64,000 nucleotides of DNA from Spirochaetia bacterium (GTDB taxonomy: Bacteria > Spirochaetota > Spirochaetia > UBA9216): the NCBI GenBank assembly GCA_965140585.1, contig OZ223268.1, forward strand, positions 64,001 through 128,000, in the 5' to 3' direction. A model generated the notes under the pieces. That model saw only the letters and a list, made by a program, of their open reading frames with translations, searched no databases and had not been told where the DNA came from. A program made the position numbers and the translations under genes. Positions 5,807 to 49,081 of this stretch are shown piece by piece (within the stretch, counting starts at the first letter, position 1; the number at the start of each line of letters is the position of its first letter).

Positions 5807-5912
5807 AGCAACTCCTTTACCTAAATCTTTATTTATTTTATAAACACATATTTATATTGTCAATAATCTATCATCAAGTTTTGAATATTATTTGATTTTT
5901 TTTAAAAAAAAA

Positions 5913-5934
5913 GTCCAGAAATATATTTCTGGAC
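5913..5934. promoter_or_regulatory. perfect 22-bp palindrome GTCCAGAAATATATTTCTGGAC, putative operator (copy 1)
   Basis: Exact self-complementary 22-mer about 60 bp upstream of the 5995 start; identical copy at 8353-8374. Confidence 0.7.
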
Positions 5935-5994
5935 GACAGCGGAATCATTTTTCTATAAATTTATCTGATTCTATTTTCAGGAGATTCAAAATAT

Positions 5995-8278: not shown

Positions 8279-8352
8279 TTACTGAATGCTATATCATAGA
8301 TGTAAAAACCTTGTACGACGGCTTAAACCTTCATTTTTTTCTATAAAAAAAA

Positions 8353-8374
8353 GTCCAGAAATATATTTCTGGAC
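8353..8374. promoter_or_regulatory. perfect 22-bp palindrome, putative operator (copy 2)
   Basis: Identical to 5913-5934, at nearly the same distance from the downstream ATG (8434). Confidence 0.7.
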
Positions 8375-8433
8375 GACTGTATCTAACAAATCGAGTAGAT
8401 TTAGCTGATTTTATATTCAGGAGAATCAAAGAA

Positions 8434-16489: not shown

Positions 16490-17209
16490 ATGGATTCAAT
16501 TATGAAAAATAGAAATATCAGCGTTCTGCTTCTGGAGGATAATCCCGCCCAGTATGCCCTGCTTTCCGCATATCTTGAGAAGGAAAATTTCAAAGTTGTT
16601 CATGCCGGCTGCATTAAAACCTTTAAAAAACTTATAGAAACTGAAAACATCGATCTTGTCCTGCTTGATCTCAATCTTCCTGACGGTGATGGATTACAGC
16701 TGATAAAAAACATTAAATCAGTTCACAGGCTTCCGGTTATCATAATTACATCACGCGATACAATAGAAGACAGAGTTATCGGTCTTGAATCGGGTGCAGA
16801 TGATTATATCTGTAAACCCTACCATCCAAGAGAGCTCATTATCCGAGTTAATAAACTTCTTAAGTCTGAAGGAGAAATATACACTGACGCTCCTGATAAA
16901 ATTATGCTCAATGATTACATTTTTGATGAGGAAGCCCACTGCTTCCTGGATAAAGGCGGATACTGCATAAAGCTTACCCCGGGTGAATATACAATTATGT
17001 CATCACTTTTAAAAAATAACGGGCGCATATTATCCAGAAGCCAGCTTATTGATACCGCTTTCAGCAGAATTGAATATCCGACAGACAGAAGCATAGATGT
17101 TCTTATCTCCCGGCTTAGAAAGAAATTCCCGGTAGCCGCTGGAGAGCCTGAAATAATTGAAACAATAAAAGGCTTCGGCTACCGGATAAACAAGAATATT
17201 CTAAAATAA
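16490..17209 (+). CDS. OmpR/PhoB-family response regulator
   Basis: LLED, LDLNLPDGDG, GADDYICKP, winged-helix RSIDVLISRLRKK, TIKGFGY. Confidence 0.95.
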   Translation: MDSIMKNRNISVLLLEDNPAQYALLSAYLEKENFKVVHAGCIKTFKKLIETENIDLVLLDLNLPDGDGLQLIKNIKSVHRLPVIIITSRDTIEDRVIGLESGADDYICKPYHPRELIIRVNKLLKSEGEIYTDAPDKIMLNDYIFDEEAHCFLDKGGYCIKLTPGEYTIMSSLLKNNGRILSRSQLIDTAFSRIEYPTDRSIDVLISRLRKKFPVAAGEPEIIETIKGFGYRINKNILK

Positions 17210-19120
17210 GTCTGCAAAAACACTCAGGAAGGGATATCCGCCGTTGGCTGAACTGTAGATATCCCAGATATCATCTGTACCTGTATCATCATCAGGATCC
17301 CCGGCAAAATCCCATGCTGTTTCCAGATCATCTCTTTCAGCTCCATCGCTGTCAGTCAGTTTTGTAAAGGTTGAATCAGTGGTCATTTCATCGCTTGTTT
17401 TTGCGGTCCCCTTCCCGGTATCAGCCATTCCGGTAGTTTCTGAATCATAAAAGCAATCCGTTACTGTACCTGAATTAAGTCCTACGACGCCTCCGGTATC
17501 ACTGCTGCCGGAGACTGCTCCTGAAGCATAGGAATAAGAAACTGTACTGTTGTTATTGTTACCGACAAGTCCACCTACTGAACCGTTCCCTGAGACAGTT
17601 CCGGCTGCATAGCAATTGGTCACAATACTGCTGTTTAAATTAAGACCGACGAGGCCGCCGACCTGAGTTAATGAACCTTTAACGGTACATTCAGAATAGC
17701 AACCTGATATCTCACCGCCGGAGTTATTCAGCCCTGCCAGACCGCCTATATAATAATATCCTTTACCTGTTACAGAACCGGCAGAACGGCAATACTCAAT
17801 GACTCCGTCATAGTTTAACCCGGCTATTCCTCCGCAGTACCCCGTACCGGTAATCGAAGAGTCAGAATATGAATATTCAATATTCCCCTTAGAGTTATAC
17901 CCAACCAGTCCGCCGCTGCGATACGAAGAACCGGTTACCGTTGCTGTACTGTAAGAGTTTGTAATTGTACCGCTATTATATCCGGCCAGACCTCCTGTAT
18001 TGTAAACCCCGGAAACGGTTCCTGACGCGTAACAGCTGCTTATCTTGCCGCTAAGATCTCCTGCAATTGCTCCTGTATTTTCACCGCCTTCGACATCTGC
18101 ATCAGTAAGCCCCAGCAAATATAGCTCACCGCTCAGCCAGCCGAAAAGTCCCTGATAATCGTCGCTTGAACTGATTTTCAGATTTGAAATAGTCCGGTTA
18201 TTTCCGTTTAACTTGCCTGAAAATTTTGAACTTCCGTCAGCACCGTAATTTCCCAGAGGGGTCCAGCTCACAGCGTCGAGATCTATATCGTTCATAAGTA
18301 TGTAAGCCCCGGAAAGTGAATTATTCATATTCTGCAACTCTTGTGCGGTACTCACAAGGGTATAACTGTCTGAGCTTCCGGAGGCCGAGGTCCTGATATA
18401 ATTGATAACTGCATCAGAGCTGGTTTTATCATCATACAGGCCGGACATACTGACAGTATAAATAGTTTCCGATTCCAGGCTGTCAAAAGAAAATGTCCCG
18501 TCACCGGGAGCAAACGAACCGCTTGAAATTGAATTACCATCAGTTAATTTAAAGACAATACTATACAATTCTTCATCCTGCAGATCTGCCAGCGTAATTG
18601 CAATGGCACTTGAGGTTGTTGATATACCGGTAATATTATCCTGAGTAAGCGAGTCTGAATGATCGGCAGCCGTTTGCGGAAAAATCGCTGTAATAATACC
18701 GGAATCAGCAGCATTGCTAACCGAAGAAGCCCCGCTAACTGTAAAAAAATCAGCAGACAGCCCTGTAAAAGTATAAGCATCTTTAGCGGTAAGTGTGATT
18801 GTCGCTGTGTATACTGTTTCAGCCTCAAAGGTTGAAGGTGAATCTGACCATACAATACTGCCGGTAAATTCATCAGTTGCCGTCACAGATGAAACCGGGA
18901 CCTCTCCATAAACCGGAACCGCTACACCGTTTATTTCATGGATTGTAATGAGAGTATCGCTACCATCATCTGTTGTAGAACTGTCAGTATCTGTATCTGC
19001 GTCTGTATCTGTCAGTTCTGAATCAGGGTCATCAATTATTAGACTGTCATCGCAGGCCATAAAGACAGCAGATAGAAACACTGCGAGTAAAAAATAAAAA
19101 AAACTACATTTTCTTTTCAT
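17201..19120 (-). CDS. GLUG-motif surface lipoprotein
   Basis: Lipobox VFMAC; acidic S/T linker; many GGL[VA]GxN GLUG repeats; FSGKLNGNNRTISNL. Confidence 0.85.
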   Translation of the reverse strand: MKRKCSFFYFLLAVFLSAVFMACDDSLIIDDPDSELTDTDADTDTDSSTTDDGSDTLITIHEINGVAVPVYGEVPVSSVTATDEFTGSIVWSDSPSTFEAETVYTATITLTAKDAYTFTGLSADFFTVSGASSVSNAADSGIITAIFPQTAADHSDSLTQDNITGISTTSSAIAITLADLQDEELYSIVFKLTDGNSISSGSFAPGDGTFSFDSLESETIYTVSMSGLYDDKTSSDAVINYIRTSASGSSDSYTLVSTAQELQNMNNSLSGAYILMNDIDLDAVSWTPLGNYGADGSSKFSGKLNGNNRTISNLKISSSDDYQGLFGWLSGELYLLGLTDADVEGGENTGAIAGDLSGKISSCYASGTVSGVYNTGGLAGYNSGTITNSYSTATVTGSSYRSGGLVGYNSKGNIEYSYSDSSITGTGYCGGIAGLNYDGVIEYCRSAGSVTGKGYYYIGGLAGLNNSGGEISGCYSECTVKGSLTQVGGLVGLNLNSSIVTNCYAAGTVSGNGSVGGLVGNNNNSTVSYSYASGAVSGSSDTGGVVGLNSGTVTDCFYDSETTGMADTGKGTAKTSDEMTTDSTFTKLTDSDGAERDDLETAWDFAGDPDDDTGTDDIWDIYSSANGGYPFLSVFADLF

Positions 19121-36550: not shown

Positions 36551-38761
36551 TTATACTCCAACAGCCTCCGGTTTTGCAGCACCGTCTTTTGAACCGTTTA
36601 TCATAACTTCCTTTACCTCAGATGCGGTAGTGCATTTAAGAAGCTGACCGGCAATCCAATCCTTGCTTAATATTGCACCGACAGAGGAGAGAAACTGCAG
36701 ATGAGGGCCGGAGGCACTTTTAGGAGACAGGGTCATAATAAATATTCTGGAAGGCTCTCCGTCAAGAGACTTGAAATCAAGGCCGCCCTTCTTAAGGCCT
36801 ATAGCAACAATTAGCTCATCAACACCGTCGGACTTTCCGTGAGGCAGGGCAATGCCGTTCTGCATACCCGTACTCATTGAAGCCTCACGTTCCTTAACAG
36901 CGGCAAGGCAGTCATCATAATCATTTATCAGACCTTCGGTATGCATCAGCCCGAGCATTTCTTCAATAAGACTGTCCTTATCATCGCTTTCAAGCTCGAG
37001 TTTAATACAGTTCTCACGGATATTTTTAAAGTGATTATCCTGAACCCTGGTCTGCTGTTCCGAGGCCAGGCTTTTCATCCCTTCAATAAGTTGTTCAGGT
37101 CTCACAAGCTCCTTGATGCGGGTTACCGTTTCATTCAGTTCTAGCAGGGCCTCGTAAACAAGGCTCTTCACATAGTGAACATCTACAGGGTCTGAGACAA
37201 TTTCGATGCGCTCATCATAATTATGGAAAGTAAGGAAGATATCGTCACGGCGTACCTGGTTTATCTGATGGTCTTCCACACTGAACTCATGGATGTAGAA
37301 ATCCTCATCTCTAAGAAGCTGTATAATCCTGGCCGAGGCCATATGAGTCATCTCTCGTGAAGGAAAATCAAACACCGTGCTTACAGTAGAAGAACCTTTT
37401 TCTGAAGTACGTGTACCCAGCTTTCCGTTTTTAAGAAGTGATGAAAGCAGAGGCGGCGGAATTAATGTGGTGATCAGGGTCATGAATATCGCGACACCGA
37501 AATGACTGTGGGATAGAATCCCCGATGATATACCAATACCGGCAATAATCAGGGCAACCTCGCCTCTGGGAACCATCCCTACACCAATACGTGCAGCACC
37601 CCTAAGGTTGAAGTTGAGAAACAGTGCAGGGATGCCGCAGCCTATAAGCTTGGCAAGAATACCAAGAACCGAGAAAAGCAGGCCGTATAGCAGGACCTGG
37701 GGCTTCAGGACTTCCTGAACATTAACAAGCATACCCATTACACAGAAAAACACAGGAACAAAGAACTCCTGAATAGGGTGAATCTTCTCCTGAATAACGA
37801 AACTCAAATCTGTACGTGATAATGAAAGACCCATTACATAGGCCCCGATAATCATCGCAAGCCCGGCCTTCTCAAATATGCCGGACAGCAGAAGGGCAAG
37901 CCCCAGGCTCATAACGGCAATTGAGTTCTCGGTATGGAAAATCTTCAGAAATTTACCGATACGTCTGGCAAAAAGAAGTCCCAGAGCAGTAAAACCAAGC
38001 CACACACCCACGGCTTTCAGCGCGATAAAGCCAATAACGCTCCAGTGCACATGTCCGCCGCCCGCACCGGTCATTACGGTCACTATACCCACAACAATCG
38101 CGAGGATGATTATGCCGAGAACATCATCAATAACTGCCGCTGCAAGGATGGTCACACCCTCGGGAGAGTCCATCTTACGCTGTTCAGATAGTATACGGGC
38201 GGTGATTCCAACAGAGGTAGCCACCGATATTACGCCTAAAAACAGGTTAACCGGCGCAAGGAGTCCCTGACCGGTTAAGAATCCTCCCGCCCAGGCGCCG
38301 GCGAAAAAGGAAACAACTACCCCGCCTATTCCGATAATAGCGCCCTTAAGCGAGTAGCGCAGAAAGAGAGATATATCGGTCTCAAGACCCGAGTGAAACA
38401 ATAATATAATGGAGGCTATTGTGGATATACCATACAATTCAGGCGTCACAGAGAGGCTTCCGTTTACAATAGGGAAAAGGCCCTCATGAAAACCCGGCAG
38501 TGGAATTCCGCCAAGCAGATAGGGGCCGATTACTATTCCCATCAGAAGTTCACCGAGAACGGACGGCATATTGATTTTCTTCATAAGAAAACCGCCCAAC
38601 CTGGCTGCGAAGAGGATTACTCCGATTTCGAATACGAGTTCGGTCATTTTTTCGGTTAAAACTGATTCTTCATTTTCGGAGGCAAAGACAGGAACGGCTG
38701 AAACAAAAAGTATAATTATAAACAGAAAGACAAATTTCTTCACACCTGACGCATTATTCAT
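36551..38761 (-). CDS. CPA2 cation:proton antiporter fused to PTS EIIA(Ntr/Fru)-like domain
   Basis: ATSVGIT, AAVIDD, MVPRGEV; C-terminal ERE..MSTG..NGIALPHGK. Confidence 0.9.
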   Translation of the reverse strand: MNNASGVKKFVFLFIIILFVSAVPVFASENEESVLTEKMTELVFEIGVILFAARLGGFLMKKINMPSVLGELLMGIVIGPYLLGGIPLPGFHEGLFPIVNGSLSVTPELYGISTIASIILLFHSGLETDISLFLRYSLKGAIIGIGGVVVSFFAGAWAGGFLTGQGLLAPVNLFLGVISVATSVGITARILSEQRKMDSPEGVTILAAAVIDDVLGIIILAIVVGIVTVMTGAGGGHVHWSVIGFIALKAVGVWLGFTALGLLFARRIGKFLKIFHTENSIAVMSLGLALLLSGIFEKAGLAMIIGAYVMGLSLSRTDLSFVIQEKIHPIQEFFVPVFFCVMGMLVNVQEVLKPQVLLYGLLFSVLGILAKLIGCGIPALFLNFNLRGAARIGVGMVPRGEVALIIAGIGISSGILSHSHFGVAIFMTLITTLIPPPLLSSLLKNGKLGTRTSEKGSSTVSTVFDFPSREMTHMASARIIQLLRDEDFYIHEFSVEDHQINQVRRDDIFLTFHNYDERIEIVSDPVDVHYVKSLVYEALLELNETVTRIKELVRPEQLIEGMKSLASEQQTRVQDNHFKNIRENCIKLELESDDKDSLIEEMLGLMHTEGLINDYDDCLAAVKEREASMSTGMQNGIALPHGKSDGVDELIVAIGLKKGGLDFKSLDGEPSRIFIMTLSPKSASGPHLQFLSSVGAILSKDWIAGQLLKCTTASEVKEVMINGSKDGAAKPEAVGV

Positions 38762-38913
38762 TGTTAATCTCCCTCTCCAGCACACCAAATAAGCTGCAAT
38801 CAACATCATAACGCGTACTGCATTTCTGCATAATAATAGAAAATATCCGCTCAGTCTATTGCCGGCATGTCCTGACAGGGAGAAACAACAGTAAGATTTA
38901 AGAAATTATATAA

Positions 38914-38987
38914 CCACAGATATATATCACGCTATGCGGTCACATATACCACGGAGCAGCCGCAAAAGTGATGGGCACTGATATAAG
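38914..38987 (+). repeat. degenerate copy A of the GxxExxY-associated repeat
   Basis: ccacagatatat...tatgcggtcaca...gatgggcactgatataag; last 18 nt match 45039-45056 at 16/18. Confidence 0.6.
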
Positions 38988-39144
38988 TTAAAAGGTATTT
39001 TTTACGCAGATTTCGCCTGTGGCTTTATCTTTATCAGAACACAGAATGTTTTTTTATCAAACAAAGAGTCTAAGTTTCCGGTATGCCACTGTGAACTTTT
39101 TGTTATAAAGTTGTACCTATATATTTTTACTTCTGTAAACTTGT

Positions 39145-39184
39145 AATGAACTGTTTTCAGATTAAATACCAAAAACAGTTCATT
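39145..39184 (-). terminator. stem-loop downstream of ribF-like gene
   Basis: aatgaactgtttt...aaaacagttcatt inverted repeat. Confidence 0.45.
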
Positions 39185-39227
39185 GAAAAATTGAAATTGT
39201 AATTGCTAAAATTATTTTTAGACTCTA

Positions 39228-40118
39228 TTATAACTTATCCAGATATGCTCTTATTGAATCAATATCATGGTTGACCTGCTGTTTAACTTCTTCAATAGAG
39301 TTAAATTTTTTAACACCTCTTATAAATACATGAACCTCAAGACTTATGATCTTTCCATATAAATCACCTGAAAAATCAAGTAAAAATGCTTCAATAGTCA
39401 GGTAGTCATAATCATCTACAGAAGGGCGCTTACCTATATTAGTGAGTCCTTTAACAGCCTTTCCGTCAATGTCTGAAAGCGTGCCGTAGACACCGTCAGA
39501 AGGAAGCTGCTTCCATGGCTCAAACCCGATATTTGCAGTCGGCATGCCCACGGTACGCCCGAGAGCTTTTCCATGCATGACTTCACCCATTATCAGATAT
39601 GGATGCCCAAGCATCCTGTTAGCTTGCTCAAGAGAACCTTTGCTTAGCACATCGAGTATTCGTTCAGAGCTAATAGGTTTATTTTCAAACTCAACTGTAT
39701 CAACTTCTATTATTTTAAAACCATACTTTATAGAGCAAGATTGAATCCTCTTAATGTTGGGATCCTGCTTCCCTGCAACAATGATCTTTGCACTGGCAGT
39801 TTTACAAAGAAAATCATTGATAAAATTTTCGATATCTGTTCCATCAAATTTATTTTCTGCTGCAAAAGAAATAATCTCATCAAGACCAGAATCTTTGAGT
39901 AAGGTATATTTTTCAAGTTTTGTAGAAAGTATTTTTTGTTTCTCCATAATTTCATCTGGATATTCAAAACAAACTATTGCAGGTTTTAATTTATTCTTTT
40001 GAGCCAATTCTACAACTTTATTTATAACACTCATGTGGCCCTGATGAATTCCATCAAAATCACCAAAAGCAATACATCTATTTTCTGTGCAAATTTCTTT
40101 ATTATTCAAAATTCTCAT
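39228..40118 (-). CDS. ribF: RibF-like riboflavin kinase / FAD synthetase paralogue
   Basis: GDFDGIHQGH, GRTVGMPTAN, NIGKRPSV, IEAFLLDFSGDLYG; the GxDFxFG loop is absent. Confidence 0.8.
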   Translation of the reverse strand: MRILNNKEICTENRCIAFGDFDGIHQGHMSVINKVVELAQKNKLKPAIVCFEYPDEIMEKQKILSTKLEKYTLLKDSGLDEIISFAAENKFDGTDIENFINDFLCKTASAKIIVAGKQDPNIKRIQSCSIKYGFKIIEVDTVEFENKPISSERILDVLSKGSLEQANRMLGHPYLIMGEVMHGKALGRTVGMPTANIGFEPWKQLPSDGVYGTLSDIDGKAVKGLTNIGKRPSVDDYDYLTIEAFLLDFSGDLYGKIISLEVHVFIRGVKKFNSIEEVKQQVNHDIDSIRAYLDKL

Positions 40119-40241
40119 ATCAACTCTTTCAGATAAGATTTCAATTCTTTGGATTATAAAAACAGGAATTAACTCTGTTTGATATTGCAGGCAAATGCAA
40201 GGATTTCGAAGAACTCCAGCCCTTCGAAATCCATAAAAGTA

Positions 40242-41597
40242 TTATTTAACCAGGCTTGGAGAACTTTTCCTTGTTCCAATCAGAAAAATAATCATACCAA
40301 TTGCAAAATATCCGGCAGTCCAGGCCCATAGCTGCCATCCTCCGGATACAATTCCCGGAATATATGCACAAATTATTATAACAAATGTTGCTATTGGTAG
40401 GAAATTTCCACCTGGTGCCTTGAATACATCTTTAACATCAGGATTCTTTTTTCGAGCTGCAATGATGGTCAAACATACTATAGCAACAACAATTGCGTTA
40501 CAGAGCGCACCAAGATTGACTATCAGATTCGTAAACTTCGGAAATGCTGCTACAACACCGACAACAACCATTACAACTATAAGTGAGTTAACCGGCATAT
40601 TAGTGCTATCGCTCGTTTTAGCAAAAAACTTTGGAAGGATCCCGCTTTCAGCAGAAGCCTGTAATGCCCTGGCGGATAATGCTATAACAACTATTATTGT
40701 AGTAAGAAGCGCCAGAACTGCAGATATTGAAATCAATGGTACAAGCCATGGAATAGATGCAAGCTTAGTAAATGCAGCTGCATAAAGGGGAATGTATGCC
40801 ATACCGGGATTTTCCTGCAGAAAACCGGAGTTCACTAATCCAAGTGTAGCCAGAATTGTCAGTACATATAAGATTAAAACTACAGTCATTGCAATTGACA
40901 TTGCCTTGGGGACAGTTTTATTTGGATTCTTAATTTCGCCAACCATAAATGAAACTGAAACTATCGAACCAAATGCGACCATTGCTACAGGAATAGCTCC
41001 CATAAATCCAAATGTTCCTTCAGCGCCCTGAGTGAAAAATGGTTTTAATAAGCTTGAATCCCAATGTCCGGAAAACAGTGCAATACAAATAAATATTACC
41101 ATTGTTACTGCCAAACCAATGGTCAGGCCGGTGTTTATCTTTCCCATAGCTGTTATTTTTACAACATTTAATATACCGCAGAATAAAACAGCCGCAATTG
41201 CCAAAGGCACCTGATATGCTCCCAATGCAGGAAAACTTACCCCTAGATAAATACTCACGTAAATTGCAGAAAAAGCAGCACCTGCAATACATCCGAATAA
41301 ATATGCCCATGAAGATATCCAGCCCCATAATTTCCCCTGCTTTTCTGTTTTACCAAGAGACTTGGAGGGAAAAACAAAAATACCACCTGAGTGCGGAAAA
41401 ATAGTTGATAATTCCGCAGTTTGAAGACCATAGGCAAAAAGAATAATTGCAGCGATTATCCATGATAAAATTGCAGCCGGGCCTGCATTTAAAATTGTAA
41501 CACCGGATAATGAAAAGATTGCGCTACCAATCATTCCACCGATCAAGATTGATGAACTGTCCATCAACCCCAGCTTTCCCTGTTCCTTTTTTGACAT
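40242..41597 (-). CDS. APC-family amino acid/amine permease
   Basis: GGMIGSAIF, AELSTIFPHSGG, GEIKNPNKTVPKA; about 12 TM segments. Confidence 0.9.
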   Translation of the reverse strand: MSKKEQGKLGLMDSSSILIGGMIGSAIFSLSGVTILNAGPAAILSWIIAAIILFAYGLQTAELSTIFPHSGGIFVFPSKSLGKTEKQGKLWGWISSWAYLFGCIAGAAFSAIYVSIYLGVSFPALGAYQVPLAIAAVLFCGILNVVKITAMGKINTGLTIGLAVTMVIFICIALFSGHWDSSLLKPFFTQGAEGTFGFMGAIPVAMVAFGSIVSVSFMVGEIKNPNKTVPKAMSIAMTVVLILYVLTILATLGLVNSGFLQENPGMAYIPLYAAAFTKLASIPWLVPLISISAVLALLTTIIVVIALSARALQASAESGILPKFFAKTSDSTNMPVNSLIVVMVVVGVVAAFPKFTNLIVNLGALCNAIVVAIVCLTIIAARKKNPDVKDVFKAPGGNFLPIATFVIIICAYIPGIVSGGWQLWAWTAGYFAIGMIIFLIGTRKSSPSLVK

Positions 41598-41654
41598 ACT
41601 AATCTATCCTCCTAATCATTCCTTAAAGATTCAACCTGCTTTAAAACAATGTTT

Positions 41655-42686
41655 TTATGTTTCAATTACAATTCTATATGTAGCCGGATCTATTGCCCTC
41701 TCAAAGGCGTAATCAATGTTTGATAACGGAACAACCTCTGAAACAAGTTTCGATGCATCGATTATTCCGAATGAGAGCAGTCTAACTGCTGACATAAAAT
41801 CCTGAGTGTTTGAATTCACGGCCCCTGTGATAATCTTTTCTGATGAATGGACTGAATTAACATCCAGTTCAATAGGTTTGCCTTTCGGGAAAGAGGAATA
41901 CATAACTACAAAGCCATTATTTCCTGTCATATTGATACTCTGGTCTGCAAGCGATGTTAATGCAGCGGTGCAGAACACAACATCCGCCCCTCTTCCATCA
42001 GTATATTCTTTGACTTTTGCTACAGCATCCTCTTCACGCGAGTTTATAAGAATATCTGCACCCATGAGCTTCGCCAACTCCAGTCGCTTGTCATCAACCT
42101 CACAGGCTATAACTCTGGCCCCCTTAAGCTTTGCCAGCTGAATATGGAAAGCACCCATAATCCCGTTTCCAACAACAACCACATCATTTCCAAGCTGTAT
42201 ATTTGCGTTATTAATACTGTGCACACAACAGGCTAATGGTTCAGTCAAGGCTGCATATTTTAAATCAAGGTCATCAGAAACTTTGTACAGGGCTTTAGCC
42301 TCAATCAGCATGTACTCTGCAAATCCGCCGGGCCCACCGACCCCTTCATGGATATTTGCAATAAAAGCAGTCTCACATTTACTTTCATGACCTGTTCGAC
42401 AGTAATAACATTCACCACAGGTTGTCAAAATCCTGGCGGCTACCTTGTCACCGATTTTCAGATTTTTAACTTTATCGCCTACCGCCTCAACTGTTCCGGC
42501 TGCCTCATGACCTCCCGCATACGGATATCTCTGGAAAATACCGTTATAGATTCTTTGTTCCAGCGTACATATAGCGCAATTGGTGATTTTTACAAGAACC
42601 TGCGATCCCTGTGGTTCCCTGATTTCTTTTTCATCAAAATTGAATTTCTTCACATCTGAATGAATTGCAACTTTGTATGTCTTCAT
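41655..42686 (-). CDS. zinc-dependent dehydrogenase (sorbitol/threonine DH-like MDR)
   Basis: GHE, CGECYYCRTGHESKC structural Zn site, LTEPLAC, VGNGIMG. Confidence 0.9.
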   Translation of the reverse strand: MKTYKVAIHSDVKKFNFDEKEIREPQGSQVLVKITNCAICTLEQRIYNGIFQRYPYAGGHEAAGTVEAVGDKVKNLKIGDKVAARILTTCGECYYCRTGHESKCETAFIANIHEGVGGPGGFAEYMLIEAKALYKVSDDLDLKYAALTEPLACCVHSINNANIQLGNDVVVVGNGIMGAFHIQLAKLKGARVIACEVDDKRLELAKLMGADILINSREEDAVAKVKEYTDGRGADVVFCTAALTSLADQSINMTGNNGFVVMYSSFPKGKPIELDVNSVHSSEKIITGAVNSNTQDFMSAVRLLSFGIIDASKLVSEVVPLSNIDYAFERAIDPATYRIVIET

Positions 42687-42694
42687 CTTTTCTC

Positions 42695-43495
42695 CTAGAA
42701 TTTCTTATTCAACTCTTTGAGAGCTGCATCAACACTGCAGTTTTCATGTATCATTTTTGCTATAGCACCTGCATATCTGGCAGGATCTTCATGTCCCCAG
42801 ATATTTCTTCCCATAGCTACACCCGCACCGCCGGCATCAATCGAATCTTTAATTTCTGTGAGAAGTTTCTCTTCCGATACTTTTTTACTGCCCCCGAGAA
42901 TAACTACCGGAACATATACACTTTCACATAACTCATGAAATGTTTCCTGTGACCCCGTATACTCGGTTTTAATGACATCGGCGCCCATCTCAGCACCCAT
43001 TCTGCAGGCGAAGGTTATATTCTCCGGAGTACGTGAATCTTCACCTCCCTCGAACCCCCTGGGAAGCATCTCAGCAACAACCGGAACACCCCACTGATCG
43101 GCGTCCAGTATATTTCTTGAAAGGTCATTCAGTATTTGGTCTTCCCATTTGGATCCAGGGAACCCCATGCTGATAACCGCATCAGCCCCAAGTCTTAATG
43201 CATCTTCAACTTTAACAACAGTCTGCAGAGGCTTTGACTTTGAACCCAAAAATGAACATGAACCATCCAGACGAAGAATTATCCCCCTGCCGTGAAACTT
43301 ATCTGCAAATTTAGCAGCAAGTCCAACGGTAGACAGAAAAGCATCTGCTCCTGCTTTGGCGACTTCACTGATTATTTTTCCAGGTTCTTTCATGGCCGGC
43401 AGAACATTGAACATATTGCCATGGTCCATTGCCATGATAAAAACCTTTCTGTCTTCCCTAAATAGATGATTCATACGATGTGTTTTTGTTGACAT
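42695..43495 (-). CDS. class I aldolase (DhnA/FbaB/LsrF family)
   Basis: AMDHG, LRLGADAV, GADVIKT Schiff-base Lys, ILGG, AMGRNIW. Confidence 0.9.
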   Translation of the reverse strand: MSTKTHRMNHLFREDRKVFIMAMDHGNMFNVLPAMKEPGKIISEVAKAGADAFLSTVGLAAKFADKFHGRGIILRLDGSCSFLGSKSKPLQTVVKVEDALRLGADAVISMGFPGSKWEDQILNDLSRNILDADQWGVPVVAEMLPRGFEGGEDSRTPENITFACRMGAEMGADVIKTEYTGSQETFHELCESVYVPVVILGGSKKVSEEKLLTEIKDSIDAGGAGVAMGRNIWGHEDPARYAGAIAKMIHENCSVDAALKELNKKF

Positions 43496-43522
43496 ATATA
43501 TGCTTCCTATTTTTATTCAATT

Positions 43523-43569
43523 TTCAGGTGTTACATATGCTCACTTTGTGTTCATATGTAACACCTGAA
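43523..43569. promoter_or_regulatory. 47-bp inverted repeat (perfect 17-bp arms), putative SorC-family operator
   Basis: TTCAGGTGTTACATATG-N13-CATATGTAACACCTGAA upstream of the aldolase; no T tract on the coding strand. Confidence 0.65.
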
Positions 43570-43684
43570 CACAGACTAACACAGCATACCTGAGAAGTAA
43601 AGCTTTTTAAGAAAAAATTTAGAGATTTATAAGCTATTTTTTAAAGTGAGGGTTGCTGTTAAATATCTGGATAAAGAAAAGATT

Positions 43685-44614
43685 TTATTTTTTTAAATTT
43701 CGATGGACTGCAGCAGCAGTAATGGAATCTGTAACTAGTATATTTATCAGGTTTCCGCGTATAGCACCCGTGATAGCAGAAACTTTCTTTTCACCGCCGG
43801 CGATGCCAATCCTGATTGGAATGTTTTTATAACTTTCCAAATCTATCGCAAATACCCTGCCGTTAAGATCACTCTGAATAACATTACCTTTATCATCAAA
43901 AAAGTGGGTACACACTTCACCAACTACATTTTTATCTTTTAAAGATTTTTTTTCCTGTTCAGACAGAAAATCTTCCTGTATGAACGAAGATTCCTCGGAC
44001 ATATCACCAAGGCCGACTACCGCAACAGTACAATTCTTCATTTTCTCATATACCTGAGCAAAAAAACTTTCTTTAAGCATTGAATCTCTGAGCTGCTTAT
44101 TTTCGACAATAATTGGAGCATACATAAAATATGGTGTTGCATCCAGGATTTCTGAAGACTGGCGTACGATGTCATCTGAATTTACATTTGACTCCCTGGC
44201 ATTCAAACCGCCTACCAGTTGTGTAACAATCAGGTTCTTTTTATCAGATTTTTCTAAATTAGCTACAGCTGAAGAAAGGGCTCTGCCCCTGGAAAAACCA
44301 ATAATATCATTATCATTAATAATCCTGTCCAGATAAGCCGCAGCAGCAAGTCCGAGTGAGTTGTTTATATCCTCGTCACAATTTAGAATTATTGCTTCGT
44401 TTAGACCCGAGCATGTCTCGAATTCAGTTTCATATTCAATATTTCGATCTTCAATATCCTGAATTACAATTTTAACAATACCTTTATCTAAACAATATTT
44501 TAATATCCGATTAACTCTTTGTCTGGATGTCAGCATTTTCTTTGCAATTTCATTCTGAGTCATGCCTTTCCTGTAATAATAATGAGCAACCTTGATATAT
44601 TCGTTAAGATTCAT
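43685..44614 (-). CDS. SorC/DeoR-family sugar-binding transcriptional regulator
   Basis: VAHYYY..GMTQNEIAK...SRQRVNR HTH; GRAL, QLVGG, GIAGGEKK, GNLINILVTD. Confidence 0.92.
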   Translation of the reverse strand: MNLNEYIKVAHYYYRKGMTQNEIAKKMLTSRQRVNRILKYCLDKGIVKIVIQDIEDRNIEYETEFETCSGLNEAIILNCDEDINNSLGLAAAAYLDRIINDNDIIGFSRGRALSSAVANLEKSDKKNLIVTQLVGGLNARESNVNSDDIVRQSSEILDATPYFMYAPIIVENKQLRDSMLKESFFAQVYEKMKNCTVAVVGLGDMSEESSFIQEDFLSEQEKKSLKDKNVVGEVCTHFFDDKGNVIQSDLNGRVFAIDLESYKNIPIRIGIAGGEKKVSAITGAIRGNLINILVTDSITAAAVHRNLKK

Positions 44615-44836
44615 AAATGTTCCTACCAGATTATACAATATCATTAATTTATTTTGTAAACTATATAAAATTATGTATCGTTGGGGAACGGAGTTGATGA
44701 TGGTTCTTAAATTATCAGCGCTATTGAATTTATAGGCGGATTTCTTACAGCCGAGAAGAACTTCTACAATGTATAAATTAACTTTCTCTGTACTTTCCGA
44801 CTGTCTATGGATAAATTTAATATAAGGAGGAACATT

Positions 44837-44980
44837 ATGGAAATTGAACCTGTAGATCCTTCGATACCACCGCCGGAAAAGCCTGCCGAACAGCCGCTCC
44901 CGCCTCCGGAAAAAACACCCCCGGAAGCTGAGGTTATCGAGGACGATGAACTCGGAGAAAACGTAGATCTGCTTTCATAA
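44837..44980 (+). CDS. 47-aa Pro/Glu-rich small protein (C-terminal LGENVDLL)
   Basis: Strong AAGGAGG RBS; MEIEPVDPSIPPPEKPAEQPLPPPEKTPPEAEVIEDDELGENVDLLS; below the ORF-track cutoff. Confidence 0.7.
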   Translation: MEIEPVDPSIPPPEKPAEQPLPPPEKTPPEAEVIEDDELGENVDLLS

Positions 44981-45002
44981 TATCCGCTGGGAGATTATTG
45001 AA

Positions 45003-45056
45003 CCACGGATATATGTGGCTTAGATATGTGGTCACACGGATTGGCACGGATATAAG
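45003..45056 (+). repeat. copy B of the GxxExxY-associated repeat (left end)
   Basis: CCACGGATATAT-N7-AGATATGTGGTCACACGG followed by attggcacggatataag; three CACGGAT units. Confidence 0.75.
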
Positions 45057-45123
45057 AAAGTTTAAGGTTGAAAAGTAGAACACTTAGGAACTGCCTCCAC
45101 GTAATACTCAATTTTACATCTTA

Positions 45124-45183
45124 TTTCCGGAGGTTCAAGGCCAGAGCAAGCGATCCTTCGGACCGGCCTTGAGCATCCGGAAA
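45124..45183 (+). other. long GC-rich stem-loop with internal C(UUCG)G tetraloop upstream of GxxExxY gene
   Basis: tttccgga-g-gttcaaggcc ... ggccttgagc-a-tccggaaa, with inner tccttcgga. Confidence 0.55.
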
Positions 45184-45211
45184 GTGAGCCTGCCTGTTTT
45201 TAATAAAAACA

Positions 45212-45640
45212 GTGAGGCTGAATCTTTTGTCTTTGACAAAAGATTTGACAGTTTTCGTTGAAAACTGTCAGTTAAGAAACTCTATAACAGAATTATCAAA
45301 TAAAATTGTAGTAGCTTTTTTCAGGGTTCATAATGAACTTGGGCCGGGTTTGCTTGAATCATGCTATCATAATGCACTTTACATTGAGATGAAAGCCACT
45401 GGGTTAAATATTGTCAATAATGCCCAACTTAATGTGCATTACCGGGGTGAAGTTGTCGGTGAGTTTTTCTCTGACCTTGTGGTTAATAACAGTATCATCA
45501 TTGAAATCAAATCTGTTCAGGCGCTTTCATCTGCTCATGAAGCACAGCTTATAAACTATCTCCGCATCAGTAAGCTTAAGGTCGGTTATCTTGTTAATTT
45601 TCAGGGTTCAAGGGTTATATTTAAGCGGTTTGTTGTTTGA
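45212..45640 (+). CDS. GxxExxY protein (PD-(D/E)XK nuclease superfamily)
   Basis: VHNELGPGLLESCY, DLVV..IIIEIKSV, HEAQLINYL, GYLVNF; start codon uncertain. Confidence 0.92.
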   Translation: MRLNLLSLTKDLTVFVENCQLRNSITELSNKIVVAFFRVHNELGPGLLESCYHNALYIEMKATGLNIVNNAQLNVHYRGEVVGEFFSDLVVNNSIIIEIKSVQALSSAHEAQLINYLRISKLKVGYLVNFQGSRVIFKRFVV

Positions 45641-45825
45641 TAGATCTTGTTCACAGATTTACCAAGAGCATGATATCATAAAGGAACAAAAGAAAAGATT
45701 ACCTGCAGACGATGATATTTCAAATGTCGACTGCCATACCTCAAACTTCTATACATCACTAGCTGAATATATAAAAGCGACATAGAAAAAAAAGTTGCAC
45801 ATTAATATTAAAAAGTCTTATATTT

Positions 45826-46527
45826 TCACCTTATAGCTTTATCAAGGATACTTTCTATCTCTTTCTCAATTTTAGGGATACTTGCTTCCAGCTCTTGAAC
45901 ACTAATAAGTCTCTCAAATGATAACATTTTAGAAATTCCATCTTGGATATTCCCAGCTAAGAAATTTACAAAAGTTGAAGAATATTCTTTAAATTCAGGT
46001 TGATGAAACACTTCTAATGAATAGAAATTAATAATCGTAGGCACTGTAACAAGTTTGAATAAATGAATTTTTGCCCTTAAAAGCTTATCGGAAATATATG
46101 TTTCACTTATAAATTTAATTTTCATGTCTAAAGCAATCGCTTCTGTGACAATTTTGTCATTTCGGTGCGGTAAAAACTCATTCTCTTCACCGTGTGAATC
46201 AATGTTAAAAGGTTTTCCAGAAGCTACAAGCCCTTTATAAATACTAGTTGGATAATACAAATTTAAAAGTTCAGAAATATAATTATTCAATTCGAGAATG
46301 TATTTTTGTCTTTGCTGGTATTTAAATTCACGATCCTGCATATTCAAATTCATAAGTAAAATAATCATCGTCAGCATTGTTAAGATTGGAGTTATAAATG
46401 AACCGAATGCTCCCCAATGATTTGGGTCGTCAGATAGTCCACCATTAAAATTGACAACATAAAGAATGATTGATAACAACGATAGTACTAAAAGAAAAAT
46501 GATTGAAATCTTCAAAATTTTATTCAT
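45826..46527 (-). CDS. hypothetical 2-TM protein of mobile-element type
   Basis: N-terminal TM-GLSDDPNHWGAFGSFITPIL-TM hairpin; very AT-rich. Confidence 0.65.
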   Translation of the reverse strand: MNKILKISIIFLLVLSLLSIILYVVNFNGGLSDDPNHWGAFGSFITPILTMLTMIILLMNLNMQDREFKYQQRQKYILELNNYISELLNLYYPTSIYKGLVASGKPFNIDSHGEENEFLPHRNDKIVTEAIALDMKIKFISETYISDKLLRAKIHLFKLVTVPTIINFYSLEVFHQPEFKEYSSTFVNFLAGNIQDGISKMLSFERLISVQELEASIPKIEKEIESILDKAIR

Positions 46528-46564
46528 ATTACAATCCCCCTTCTCTTCAATAGTTAATTATTTT

Positions 46565-47280
46565 TTAAGACTGAAATGGATTCTTTGATAGATAATTTTT
46601 CATTTGCTTTATTTTGATATCAAGAAAATCATTGCTGATATGCATTCTTTCATAGATAACTTCAGTCGCTTCAGCGATAATATAGAATATTGTTTCGATA
46701 TGAGCCACAAAGGCTTGAATAGGTCTTTCATTAACCAACATAAAAACATCGCGTTCAGAATTATATGAACGATCCATCAGAACTGCCAAATTATTGTGCG
46801 TCTCACCACAAAGCGTAATATAAGCACCTTTATAGAAATTCTCCAACCCGGCGCTTTTAAATTTGGACTTAATTGACAGTACTTTTCCATTTTCACTTCA
46901 AATTCATTTATTTTAGCCTTTATACTGTCAATCTTTACATCATCCACTTTAAAATCCCCTTCAAACAAACCTTCTTTAAAAACCTTAATTCGATGTTTAT
47001 GGTAATCCAATTCTAATAATGATAAATAGCTCTCATCATTATTAAGATTTATAAAGTCAACAAAGGCTTCCAACATATTTCTTAAAATATGAGAAACAGC
47101 TGCTAAAAGATGCTCCTTAATAAGCACCATACAGGAAAGACAATCCTCGTATATCGTGCAATACAAACAAAGCAATGCAGTAGTGTATTTATCGTTGGAG
47201 ATATCATTTTTCTTTTTTAAATCTTTTTCGATATTTTTACATATGCATAATCTATCATTCCAAATCCTTATCAGGTTCAA
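46565..47280 (-). pseudogene. frameshifted DUF5677-like protein
   Basis: ILRNMLEAFVDFINL in one frame continues as AGLENFYKGAYITLCGETHNN in another near 46855. Confidence 0.55.
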
Positions 47281-47605
47281 CTACATTTTGATTTGAACTT
47301 GCTCTTTTTCTTTTTTTTTCCTGTAATTTTGCATATTGAATCGGGTTTATCTTGTCTTCGATTATAAAATTATCCATCAGGTACAATAAATCAAGAGCTC
47401 GCAATATCTGAATAAGAGAGGAAAGCCTAATTGATTCCCCATTCTCAATTTGAACAAGAGTACCTCTATTTATCCCTGCTTCATATGCTATTTTTTCTTG
47501 AGTTTTGTTTTGTCCCAGTCGCTGATGTTTAATATATGTACCTATAACACTTATAAGTGCGGAATCGGTCATTGAAGCCCAATTATTGTTGATATTTTCC
47601 ATCAT
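47255..47605 (-). CDS. XRE-family HTH protein (HipB-like antitoxin)
   Basis: IKHQRLGQNKTQEKIAYEAGINRGTLVQIENG HTH; SLIQILRAL; palindrome tgttgg-N6-ccaaca at 47628-47645 upstream. Confidence 0.85.
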   Translation of the reverse strand: MMENINNNWASMTDSALISVIGTYIKHQRLGQNKTQEKIAYEAGINRGTLVQIENGESIRLSSLIQILRALDLLYLMDNFIIEDKINPIQYAKLQEKKRKRASSNQNVVEPDKDLE

Positions 47606-47883
47606 TAACCCTGCAATATTGTTTTAATGTTGGCTTTTTCCAACAAAGAACCAGTTTTCACATTTAGTTGTGAGAAATGCGGGTTAATCATTATGTTTTT
47701 AGATTACCTCTACGTAAGGAACAGTTTATACTTCACCAGGTAAAAATTAGGTACACTATTCCAGGGGAAATTCATGAAGCGCCTCTGAGTATTTCCACCT
47801 GATACACCAGCAAGAAAAAATTTTTCTACGATAATACAAACAAACGTTCATCTGTGAACCGCTGCCCTTCACCACCCCACTAA

Positions 47884-47920
47884 CCGTGTGACCGCATATC
47901 TTTACCCAATATATCCGTGG
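47884..47920 (-). repeat. copy C of the GxxExxY-associated repeat (right end, inverted)
   Basis: Reverse complement CCACGGATATAT-N7-AGATATGCGGTCACACGG, same length as copy B. Confidence 0.75.
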
Positions 47921-47985
47921 CCAACACCCTCTTCTCGGGCTGGCCGAAAGACAGCGAAGTGCAGCAGCCCAGGCCACTATGGTGC

Positions 47986-48014
47986 AAAAAAAGCACCTTC
48001 TAAGGTGCTTTTTT
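47986..48014 (-). terminator. tRNA terminator
   Basis: aaaaaaaGCACCTTctAAGGTGCtttttt. Confidence 0.8.
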
Positions 48015-48022
48015 AAACGGTA

Positions 48023-48096
48023 TCGGGCTGGCCGGATTTGAACCGGCGACCCCAAGTCCCCCAGACTTGTACGCTAAACCCCTGCGCTACAGCCCG
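48023..48096 (-). tRNA. tRNA-Pro(GGG)
   Basis: CGGGCTG acceptor stem, anticodon arm CAAGT-CTGGGGG-ACTTG, GGTTCAAATCC T-loop; CCA not encoded. Confidence 0.95.
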
Positions 48097-48130
48097 TTAT
48101 GTGCTGGTAAAGATACCACTTAAATGCTTT

Positions 48131-48934
48131 TTATGTCAATAAATCCGGATACACCTTTTCAATCCATTTCTGCGAATCCATCGGAGGCCTCATATACCCC
48201 TCAGGCGACTGGCGCTCGGGCAGATCTATAGGTTCCGGAGTAAGGTCCTGATACGGAATCTGCTTTAAAAAATGATCTATAGTATTAAGCCTGGTGCAGA
48301 ACTTGTCATCTGCATCAACCACATGCCAGGGAGAATCTGGCAGATCAGAAAATGCAAACATCTCATCCTTCGCCTTAGAATACTCAACCCACTTTGAACG
48401 GGCCGTCATATCCATCGGACTGAGCTTCCACCTCTTTGCAGGGTCTTTAAGCCTGTCCCGGAACCGCTTTTCCTGTTCTTCATCACTTACCGAAAACCAG
48501 TATTTAATCAGAATAATTCCGCTTCGAATCAGCATACGCTCAAATTCAGGAAGCGAACGTTTGAACTCATCATATTCATCATGGGAACAGAAGCCCATAA
48601 CATGCTCTACCCCCGCCCTGTTGTACCAGGAACGATCAAAAAAAACCATTTCACCGGCGGAAGGCAGATGAGTCACATAGCGCTGAAAGTACCACTGACT
48701 CTTCTCCTTTTCTGTAGGAACAGGCAGTGCCACGACCCTGGCTCCGCGGGGGTTTAAACCGGCAGTGATTACCTTTATTACGCCCCCCTTTCCTGCTGCA
48801 TCACGGCCTTCAAAAAGAACAACAACCTTTAATCCCTGTTTTTTAATCCACTGCTGCTGTTTAACAAGCTCAGTGGTAAGCCTTTTCAGTTCCTTCAGAT
48901 AATCTTTCTTCTTCAGCTTTGATTTTGTCCCCAT
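48131..48934 (-). CDS. ppk2: polyphosphate kinase 2
   Basis: FEGRDAAGKGG, WYFQRY, FDRSWYNRAGVE, WKLSPMD; ggagg RBS before 48934. Confidence 0.95.
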   Translation of the reverse strand: MGTKSKLKKKDYLKELKRLTTELVKQQQWIKKQGLKVVVLFEGRDAAGKGGVIKVITAGLNPRGARVVALPVPTEKEKSQWYFQRYVTHLPSAGEMVFFDRSWYNRAGVEHVMGFCSHDEYDEFKRSLPEFERMLIRSGIILIKYWFSVSDEEQEKRFRDRLKDPAKRWKLSPMDMTARSKWVEYSKAKDEMFAFSDLPDSPWHVVDADDKFCTRLNTIDHFLKQIPYQDLTPEPIDLPERQSPEGYMRPPMDSQKWIEKVYPDLLT

Positions 48935-49081
48935 TTTGGACCTCCTGCAGACGGTATATCCGAATTTTAAACTCATTTGCAGCATGAAAGCAAATTTTAT
49001 TTTTTATTGCCTGTATTGGTTTCTTACTATATACTTCTATAAAATTTCACAAATAGGCGTAAATTACCGAGAAATATACAA

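Follow-up and report, generated by a model that had tools for sequence, protein, structure and literature searches.

A box-type repeat paired around a GxxExxY gene and accessory genes in a spirochaete, and its possible kinship to REP- and IVS-like elements

Repetitive extragenic palindromic (REP) sequences accompany a RAYT, an HUH/Y1 (IS200-like) transposase. A second system in which a small gene lies within inverted repeats is the intervening sequence (IVS) of the Coxiella 23S rRNA, which its published account treats as a selfish element: terminal inverted repeats, whose pairing gives a 28-bp stem, enclose an S23p (four-helix-bundle) open reading frame (ORF), three GACAGAT heptamers stand in tandem after an AGAAGA, excision is by RNase III, and an older proposal is cited that the ORF once served mobility (PMC4990558). 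A 23S IVS with an S23p ORF is also found in Leptospira. The GxxExxY (PDDEXK_3) family is listed with function “Unknown” in a 2012 survey of PD-(D/E)XK proteins (PMC3424549), and a published pipeline gave the label GxxExxY domain to a gene that CRISPRone results suggested as cas4 (PMC8934634). A genome-language-model preprint mentions REP elements and Bacteroides in its available text, and nothing there concerns the GxxExxY family (10.64898/2026.09.22.753630). Likewise, the accessible portions of open-access papers and preprints yielded no description of a link between repeats and GxxExxY genes, no assigned function and no mention of flanking repeats. Here, we analyze a 37-nt repeat (the 37-mer) and the GxxExxY gene that it accompanies in a 64,000-nt stretch of DNA from a Spirochaetia bacterium (contig OZ223268.1, positions 64,001 to 128,000), referred to throughout as the window.

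An inverted 37-mer pair and its GxxExxY gene

When up to 3 mismatches are allowed, the window holds exactly 2 matches to the 37-mer, whose consensus is CCACGGATATAT-N7-AGATATG[T/C]GGTCACACGG: copy A at 45003-45039 on the plus strand and copy B at 47884-47920 on the minus strand. The copies agree at 31 of 37 positions, and at 29 of 30 outside the 7-nt center, and no match at this tolerance appeared in any of 100 dinucleotide shuffles of the window. The inverted pair described in the original prediction, a note made by a model from the sequence alone, was thus recovered with its coordinates and arm identity. That note had also placed the repeats around AT-rich DNA beside a tRNA-Pro gene, and here too it proved right: the GC fraction is 0.333 in 45003-47920 and 0.384 in 38914-45002, the flanks are at 0.44-0.455, and the tRNA-Pro gene lies at 48023-48096. 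The repeats and the gene region are laid out as follows, with L001 denoting a related spirochaete locus described below.

38903-38987, plus strand: copy C, degenerate (CCACAGATATAT..TATGCGGTCACA..CCACGGAG..GGCACTGATATAAG), at the left border of the low-GC region and oriented like copy A
44980-44990, beside copy A: possible inverted box ATATCCGCTGG, read from sequence only
44987-45039, plus strand: copy A, consisting of the 37-mer (45003-45039) and about 16 nt of outward conservation; the profile alignment starts at 44987
45045-45055, plus strand: third CACGGAT box of the left end (CACGGATATAAG); the equivalent L001 box is at 10043
45133-45188, plus strand: conserved leader module with the hairpin TCAAGGCC-N22-GGCCTTGA, 91% identical over 56 nt to L001 16317-16262
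45195-45289, plus strand: window-specific palindromic segment of 95 nt, with two or three adjacent palindromes and a terminator-like hairpin at 45246-45270
45227-45640, plus strand: GxxExxY / PDDEXK_3 gene, TTG start as in P0001; the family match runs from 45290
45652-45658, plus strand: CACAGAT box, 11 nt past the GxxExxY stop codon, sharing the sense of the boxes upstream and overlapping a promoter-like site at 45650-45679
47850-47856, minus strand: third box of the right end (GGTTCACAGATGAAC), overlapping the promoter-like hexamers TTCACA-16-TATTAT
47884-47936, minus strand: copy B, consisting of the 37-mer (47884-47920) and outward conservation (GAAGAGGGTGTTGG)

The repeat exceeds 37 nt: some 14-16 nt are conserved outward of CCACGG, and a third CACRGAT box follows beyond the 37-mer at a variable distance, from 42 to about 120 nt. 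The heptamer CAC[A/G]GAT is mildly enriched in the window (21 found versus 13.5 expected; 4 of 100 shuffles reach 21), and the units that had been pointed out at 45652 and 47850 are present. Copy C, at which GC drops from 0.46 to 0.34, is a weaker case. Its region 38903-38944 was found at E 0.0037 with an nhmmer profile of five copies and at E 0.017 with a profile built from the copies of other genomes only, so that the existence of a degenerate third copy is upheld at a marginal level; its best 18-nt match to copy B, given beforehand as 16 of 18, is 15 of 18, around an exact 12-nt core (TATGCGGTCACA).

The GxxExxY ORF matches both family models far above their cut-offs (PF13366, 8e-39, 133 bits versus 22; TIGR04256, 5.6e-40, 136.3 bits versus 35). 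P0001 contains the motifs GLLESCY, SD, EIK and QLINY, so that the catalytic E...D...ExK and QxxxY are intact; in an alignment of 58 relatives, E44, D83, E93, K95, N110 and Y111 do not vary, and at least 90% of the sequences keep Q107. No solved structure in the PDB matched the protein by sequence. A structure model with a predicted local distance difference test score of 91.7 found its best structural matches in the Cas4-like SSO0001, lambda-type exonucleases and Cas4, with the Hjc resolvase lower and tRNA-splicing endonucleases among the weak matches. The assignment to the PD-(D/E)XK fold made in the original prediction is therefore supported by family match and model alike, and the protein is, as modeled, a minimal RecB/Cas4-like PD-(D/E)XK nuclease with an intact active site. 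The family is large (34,145 representatives at 50% identity, E<=1e-3), and a protein search against phages gave no phage homologue. Tandem two-domain fusions of 250-295 aa make up 36 of the top 150 family representatives (P0121-P0267), a share that is raised by the ranking, since the domain scores of fusions add. In both fusions that were examined (P0121 and P0122), one domain lacks the catalytic residues. Because one domain has lost these residues, which fits a dimer making one cut, we infer that GxxExxY is a dimeric enzyme able to work with one active site.

The leader module has its L001 counterpart (16317-16262) upstream of the second GxxExxY gene of that locus. Within the adjoining 95-nt segment, the hairpin TGACAGTTTTC-GTT-GAAAACTGTCA is terminator-like on the minus strand. 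The N-terminal extension encoded there (MSLTKDLTVF.ENCQ) is shared with one other protein, P0008; because the extension recurs in a protein that is otherwise only 63% identical, the sequence suggests that 45195-45289 is a small mobile or conserved DNA module. On the other side of the repeat, a 57-aa proline- and glutamate-rich ORF (44807-44980, plus strand), which has a strong ribosome-binding site and matches no family, stops 22 nt short of copy A.

Spirochaete relatives and flanking repeats in other phyla

We scanned 185,579 species genomes, a set that does not include the source genome of the window, with the strict pattern CCACRGATATAT-N{4,15}-ATGYGGTCACA, and found 2 loci, both in spirochaete metagenome-assembled genomes (MAGs), L001 and L002. 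L001 has three copies: a at 10001 (plus), b at 16499 (minus) and c at 18650 (minus), the last truncated at its 5′ end. The a/b pair is inverted and holds a GxxExxY gene, a methyltransferase-HNH gene, a PLD-helicase-DUF3427 gene, a NUDIX gene and a second GxxExxY gene; each GxxExxY gene, set in from its repeat by 270-285 nt, is the first of a string of co-directional genes. Inverted repeat copies thus bracket accessory genes in two genomes, those of L001 being restriction-like. The stretch from b to c, outside the a/b pair, contains genes for a YhgA-like (Transposase_31) protein and a Fic protein. In L002, the copy stands between a glpD-like gene and a block of ParE, nucleotidyltransferase, UvrD-like helicase and type I restriction R subunit genes, and a degenerate second copy is found 6.6 kb away (E 0.013). 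The association of the repeat with GxxExxY genes that a genome-wide scan was expected to reveal is therefore seen in L001, with its inverted pair and two such genes, and not in L002, where none lies within 10 kb of the copy. Neither locus has a tRNA.

The repeat is non-random and linked to GxxExxY genes, and across genomes it is better conserved than the DNA around it. Cross-genome identity is 94-97% for the repeat, 86-88% for the GxxExxY genes and 83-85% for a shared S1 gene, and copy B is identical to the L001 and L002 copies at 34 of 37 positions, which makes it nearer to them than to copy A (31 of 37). Homology between the window and L001 units begins just outside CCACGG and ends at the stop codon. 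Of the 6 strong copies, three (A in the window and the L001 pair a/b) precede a GxxExxY gene by 245-286 nt, and two more are within 2.4 kb of one. These loci have further repeats of their own. A second module of about 50 nt (CTGCGTTAAACC..TATAGTCTGACTTAAAC..GCAGCACCGAAG), absent from the window, occurs in L001 at about 9900-9975, at 16560-16610 and at 18655-18705, and in L002 at about 9940-9995; it lies outside the 37-mer in the three L001 copies and between the 37-mer and the third box in L002. Also in L002, a 161-bp stretch of the ParE gene (9697-9857) is duplicated 3.7 kb away at 13416-13576 with 99.4% identity, and a 59-bp repeat pair occupies 8741-8799 and 14112-14170.

A DNA search of the 37-mer region against plasmids gave no match. 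At the protein level, tblastn with three family members against 72,556 plasmid records returned the same 8 records each time. For these, we scored inverted and direct repeats in 150 nt on each side of the gene and compared them with 120 control ORFs from the same loci. All 8 records have flanking repeats; 7 exceed the control 95th percentile and the Treponema locus (L003) is borderline. For inverted repeats (95th percentile 11.5), these are Bernardetia (18), Bacteroides (22.5), Sphingomonas (20.5) and Gemmatirosa (24), with Treponema at 11.0; for direct repeats (12.0), they are Fusobacteria (29.5), Prevotella (24.5), Persicobacter (13) and again Gemmatirosa (23). One control ORF, flanked by copies of a terminator palindrome, scores equally high. 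The three MAG units score only 8-9.5, because their partner arm is far away. CACRGA boxes, in sense upstream and inverted downstream, are present at 4 loci (Treponema, Fusobacteria, Bernardetia and B. finegoldii), even though the homologues with such boxes in these groups are only 32-45% identical as proteins. The Treponema arm TTGTCACACGGATTCG, paired with CGAATCCGTGT, matches the 3′ half of the window 37-mer, and Gemmatirosa (CGCAGAGGA) and Sphingomonas (ACGCGAAGG) have related nine-base units.

The GxxExxY family sits between repeat arms in these compact units, and in at least one genus the arms also occur as gene-less hairpins. Arms of the compact units measure 25-32 nt with 86-100% complementarity, and three of the homologue genes are co-oriented inside housekeeping operons: between fabD and fabG (Sphingomonas), downstream of radA (Bacteroides) and downstream of ade. 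The B. finegoldii arm recurs at 46 places in 15 records of the plasmid collection. All 9 further places inspected, among the 14 other records, are gaps of 100-215 nt with no annotated gene, such as those at gmd-fcl, dnaN-exonuclease and pheS-MFS, and in 4 of 4 places read in sequence the gene-less arms form long hairpins, for which Rfam has no family. In Gemmatirosa, the arm occurs at 12-15 places on each of two megaplasmids; on one megaplasmid (L010), a GxxExxY gene that is apparently frameshifted lies between two complete hairpins of CGCAGAGGA units, at 2800-2866 and 3378-3461.

Cargo, the tRNA-Pro side and candidates set aside

The remaining features of the window locus are the genes that lie between the repeat copies and the tRNA-Pro gene beyond copy B.

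39228-44644, minus strand: five genes between copies C and A, for a ribF-like FAD synthetase, an amino-acid permease, a Zn alcohol dehydrogenase, a DeoC/LacD aldolase and a SorC-type regulator (Pfam, NCBIfam)
45826-46527, minus strand: cargo protein of 233 aa, with language-model look-alikes in DUF4760 (0.95) and putative AbiC (0.91) clusters, a lead only
46565-47280, minus strand: DUF5677 gene as two overlapping ORFs, 46777-47280 (167 aa) and 46565-46846 (93 aa); PF18928 matches the first at 5.6e-11
47255-47605, minus strand: XRE-type helix-turn-helix gene (PF01381, 1.7e-07), the first gene inward from copy B
47935-47946, plus strand: 12-mer identical to the tRNA-Pro 3′ end (TCGGGCTGGCCG), on the outer side of copy B; its one other exact occurrence is at 48023 (48023-48034)
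48023-48096, minus strand: tRNA-Pro (GGG)

The XRE, DUF5677 and 233-aa genes may form a phage-defense module. The XRE gene has antitoxin and control-protein look-alikes, all below cut-off; Pfam, NCBIfam and PADLOC all gave nothing for the 233-aa protein; and PADLOC offered no defense-system model for the GxxExxY, 233-aa or DUF5677 ORFs and only weak control-protein matches for the XRE gene. The DUF5677 gene is apparently split by a frameshift or an assembly error. None of the 53 window ORFs scanned against Pfam belongs to an integrase or transposase family, as had been claimed beforehand, and no rRNA match was found in window positions 38000-49000. The two copies of the tRNA-end 12-mer span only 76 bp, which contain a terminator-like hairpin; this short repeat may be the scar of an earlier integration at tRNA-Pro.

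Several known types of element were considered for the repeats. A stable hairpin within the 37-mer is weak (folding z 0 to -2.1). Sigma-70 or sigma-54 promoters inside it have the wrong hexamer spacing, and their features are not kept among copies. As for known RNA families, Rfam matches were limited to tRNA and sub-threshold chance matches. An integron attC site, an idea prompted by the cassette-like cargo (ParE, Fic, NUDIX, nucleotidyltransferase), was dismissed on the grounds that A and B are inverted, intI is absent and the 37-mer has no R′′/R′ core; GTTAAAC was found only in the separate 50-nt module of L001 and L002. A tRNA att site was likewise discarded, as the 12-mer repeat encloses just 76 bp and lies outside copy B.

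Elsewhere in the window, a 22-nt perfect palindrome (GTCCAGAAATATATTTCTGGAC) is part of a 42-nt repeat at 5896-5937 and 8336-8377, which flanks the gene for a 742-aa repeat-rich surface protein; a 93-nt segment, 78% identical, is common to the starts of this gene and the next (5989-6081 and 8428-8520).

A candidate selfish unit and its alternatives

We tentatively favor, at a little short of an even chance, the reading that CAC[A/G]GA-type boxes build up a terminal repeat, of which the 37-mer is the form found in spirochaetes, and that this repeat belongs to a REP/RAYT- or IVS-like selfish unit that carries cargo here. The basic unit would consist of boxes, a GxxExxY gene and inverted boxes, some 0.45-0.5 kb in all, inserted between genes and often inside housekeeping operons; gene-less hairpin copies of the same arms elsewhere in the genome would reproduce the pattern of REP and RAYT, of miniature inverted-repeat transposable elements (MITEs) and their parents, and of rRNA IVSs. 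In the window, this unit would have been stretched, so that its left end comprises copy A, a leader of 250 nt and the GxxExxY gene, its right end is copy B with the canonical inverted polarity, and 2.2 kb of antisense cargo (XRE, DUF5677 and the AbiC/DUF4760-like gene) lies in between. Copy C would then be a second, outer bracket around the catabolic operon. Mechanistically, a GxxExxY dimer might bind and nick or cut the box arrays, repair of the cuts, in the manner of transposition or homing, might spread or maintain the unit, and whatever DNA is enclosed by two inverted ends could be carried along or exchanged with it. A wider version of this proposal holds that GxxExxY proteins are the mobilizing nucleases of widespread, undescribed selfish elements of minimal size (about 0.45 kb, with ends of inverted box arrays, gene-less hairpin derivatives and IVS kinship), whose end pairs enclose and move or exchange defense and accessory genes; we regard it as unlikely, and offer it as a speculation. 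The selfish, RAYT-REP-like nature advanced in the original prediction survives in part: a link between the repeat and GxxExxY genes and a REP-RAYT-like layout are both seen, the protein is not a RAYT, and mobility, cleavage specificity and the nucleation of cargo capture stay conjectural.

Several observations speak against a selfish unit of this kind. Concerning the repeat itself, 4 of 6 copies of the 37-mer fold as DNA no better than shuffles (z-scores 0 to -2.1, with inconsistent structures); the flanks of A and B (TTGAA and CCAAC; ...ATTATTGAA and CCAACACCC..., with ...TTATATAA for C) lack the target-site duplication (TSD) that is a criterion for DNA transposons; the box beside the stop codon of the window gene is in sense rather than inverted; and neither near-identical repeat copies nor an empty site for comparison were found. 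In this spirochaete clade, the repeat is not an abundant REP, because the strict pattern occurs once in the complete 5.15-Mb chromosome of L002, and that copy is the one with no GxxExxY gene nearby. Paralogues within a genome are 65-75% identical and give no sign of recent spread. The usual GxxExxY form of about 120 aa with its own ATG and ribosome-binding site is not found in the window: relatives start MLxYEELSNK, and segment 45195-45289 has replaced the native ribosome-binding site, the ATG and the first codons, leaving TTG as the sole start, with 16 additional residues. To judge by the replaced native start, the frameshift in DUF5677 and the divergence of its ends, the window copy is apparently old and perhaps inactive. 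In other phyla, the sample is small (8 plasmid loci and 3 MAG units), and 3 of the 8 plasmid loci are flanked by direct repeats whose sequence is unrelated. Finally, IVS-type heptamers surround an unrelated ORF in the published description (PMC4990558), so the boxes may not be specific to GxxExxY; because the same type of heptamer flanks an unrelated ORF family there, they may, by analogy, serve a host factor such as RNase III instead.

An explanation in which nothing moves would see the repeats as cis-regulatory boxes, operator-like or promoter-proximal, that head accessory operons and are bound by a regulator, possibly GxxExxY itself, the pair then being two convergent operons. Four of the 7 clear or marginal copies do stand at the head of a co-directional string, 245-315 nt ahead of its first gene: A precedes GxxExxY, B precedes the XRE-DUF5677-233-aa string, L001 a precedes GxxExxY and methyltransferase-HNH, and L001 b precedes GxxExxY, NUDIX and the DUF3427 helicase. 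There are also promoter-like hexamers, TTCACA-16-TATTAT, that overlap the third box of copy B. However, promoter-like sites are not enriched (14 versus 13.7 in shuffles), copy C, L001 c and the L002 copy have no nearby co-directional gene, other phyla have inverted downstream boxes and gene-less hairpins between housekeeping genes, and an intact nuclease active site is unexpected of a plain repressor. We consider this explanation improbable, albeit worth keeping in view. The same L001 arrangement, as the full form with two convergent units, could also make A, B and C the relics of old 5′ regions of paralogous GxxExxY genes, produced by local inverted duplication and decay, with the 37-mer having a leader function only. 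That copy B retains just the 37-mer and the third box, and that A and B have diverged to 31 of 37, agrees with such a history. Yet the 37-mer is 94-97% identical across genomes, compared to 86-88% for the adjacent coding sequence, and copy B is nearer to the copies of other genomes than to copy A; this conservation, together with the 34/37 matches of copy B, argues for selection on the repeat itself, and we give the relic explanation little credence.

An RNA-level element of the IVS type seems to us less plausible again. Here, the arms would pair in the transcript, RNase III or GxxExxY would cut the stem and insulate the host operon, and the window pair would be a decayed relic. The co-orientation of compact units within operons (fabD-fabG, downstream of radA and of ade), their long and nearly complementary arms, the tRNA-splicing endonucleases among the weak structural matches, and the 28-bp stem, GACAGAT heptamers and RNase III excision described for the Coxiella IVS (PMC4990558) are all in line with it. 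In the window, however, the arms are 2.8 kb apart with cargo on the opposite strand, which makes pairing in one transcript unlikely; the best structural matches are DNA exonucleases and Cas4, and no rRNA was found in the window region searched. The explanation that we hold to be very unlikely is that the low-GC block is the remnant of a tRNA-Pro island that lost its integrase, with the repeats as incidental passengers or local duplications. It can call on the adjoining tRNA-Pro gene, the low GC and an exact 12-nt repeat of the tRNA 3′ terminus, which adjoins copy B on its outer side, 76 nt downstream of the tRNA. Against this, no scanned ORF belongs to an integrase family, the tRNA-end repeat encloses 76 bp with no third copy near 38900 or 45000, L001 and L002 carry the same repeats without a tRNA, and the cross-phylum link to GxxExxY would be left unexplained.

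If the wider version of the proposal is right, gene mobility would depend on a PD-(D/E)XK enzyme only, in place of a DDE, HUH, serine or tyrosine enzyme. The flanking box arrays and the gene-less hairpins in housekeeping operons give a large, function-unassigned family, GxxExxY/PDDEXK_3, a concrete candidate nucleic-acid substrate, and link it to two old puzzles: the origin of rRNA IVSs, and the spread of REP-like hairpins in phyla for which a RAYT-based account is not known to have been proposed. If cargo can be enclosed by two ends, a new route by which defense islands assemble or are exchanged would be marked by the repeats, which could then help to search for such islands.

Of the described systems, tRNA-integrating islands do not match: neither an integrase nor tRNA 3′-end repeats at both ends of the island were found at the window locus. 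With Cas4, RecB and lambda exonuclease, the protein shares the fold and the motifs E...D...ExK and QxxxY, but at about 120 aa it comprises the nuclease core only. Like a homing endonuclease gene, GxxExxY is a small nuclease gene wedged between conserved, co-oriented genes with a sporadic distribution. Flanking repeat arms and gene-less hairpins are, to our knowledge, not features of free-standing homing endonuclease genes. MITEs and their parent elements offer a parallel in that one type of inverted arm surrounds a gene (472 bp, L006) in some places and a loop of about 10-130 nt in others, and, as in composite elements, a segment bounded by two inverted ends might in principle be mobilized whole; there is, in contrast, no TSD, no known transposase family and no set of near-identical copies.

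The IVS and the compact homologues both have a small ORF within terminal inverted repeats with tandem heptamers, although the window arms are 2.8 kb apart, and for both a selfish view has been taken, for the IVS in its published account (PMC4990558). By our own reading, GACAGAT after AGAAGA in the IVS also resembles the CAC[A/G]GAT boxes preceded by (A/G)AGAG here. The window element differs in that it is not in an rRNA, its ORF belongs to PF13366 rather than PF05635 (S23p), and it has antisense cargo. REP-RAYT differs in its enzyme, RAYT being of the HUH/Y1 type and GxxExxY a RecB/Cas4-like PD-(D/E)XK protein; moreover, the spirochaete 37-mer is not a clear palindrome and its strict pattern is single-copy in a 5.15-Mb chromosome, and 2-9 kb of accessory genes lie between the ends. 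What the two have in common is the layout, with a small nuclease-type gene flanked by inverted copies of a short repeat (window A/B, L001 a/b and 4-5 of the 8 plasmid loci) and gene-less copies scattered between genes in Bacteroides and Gemmatirosa.

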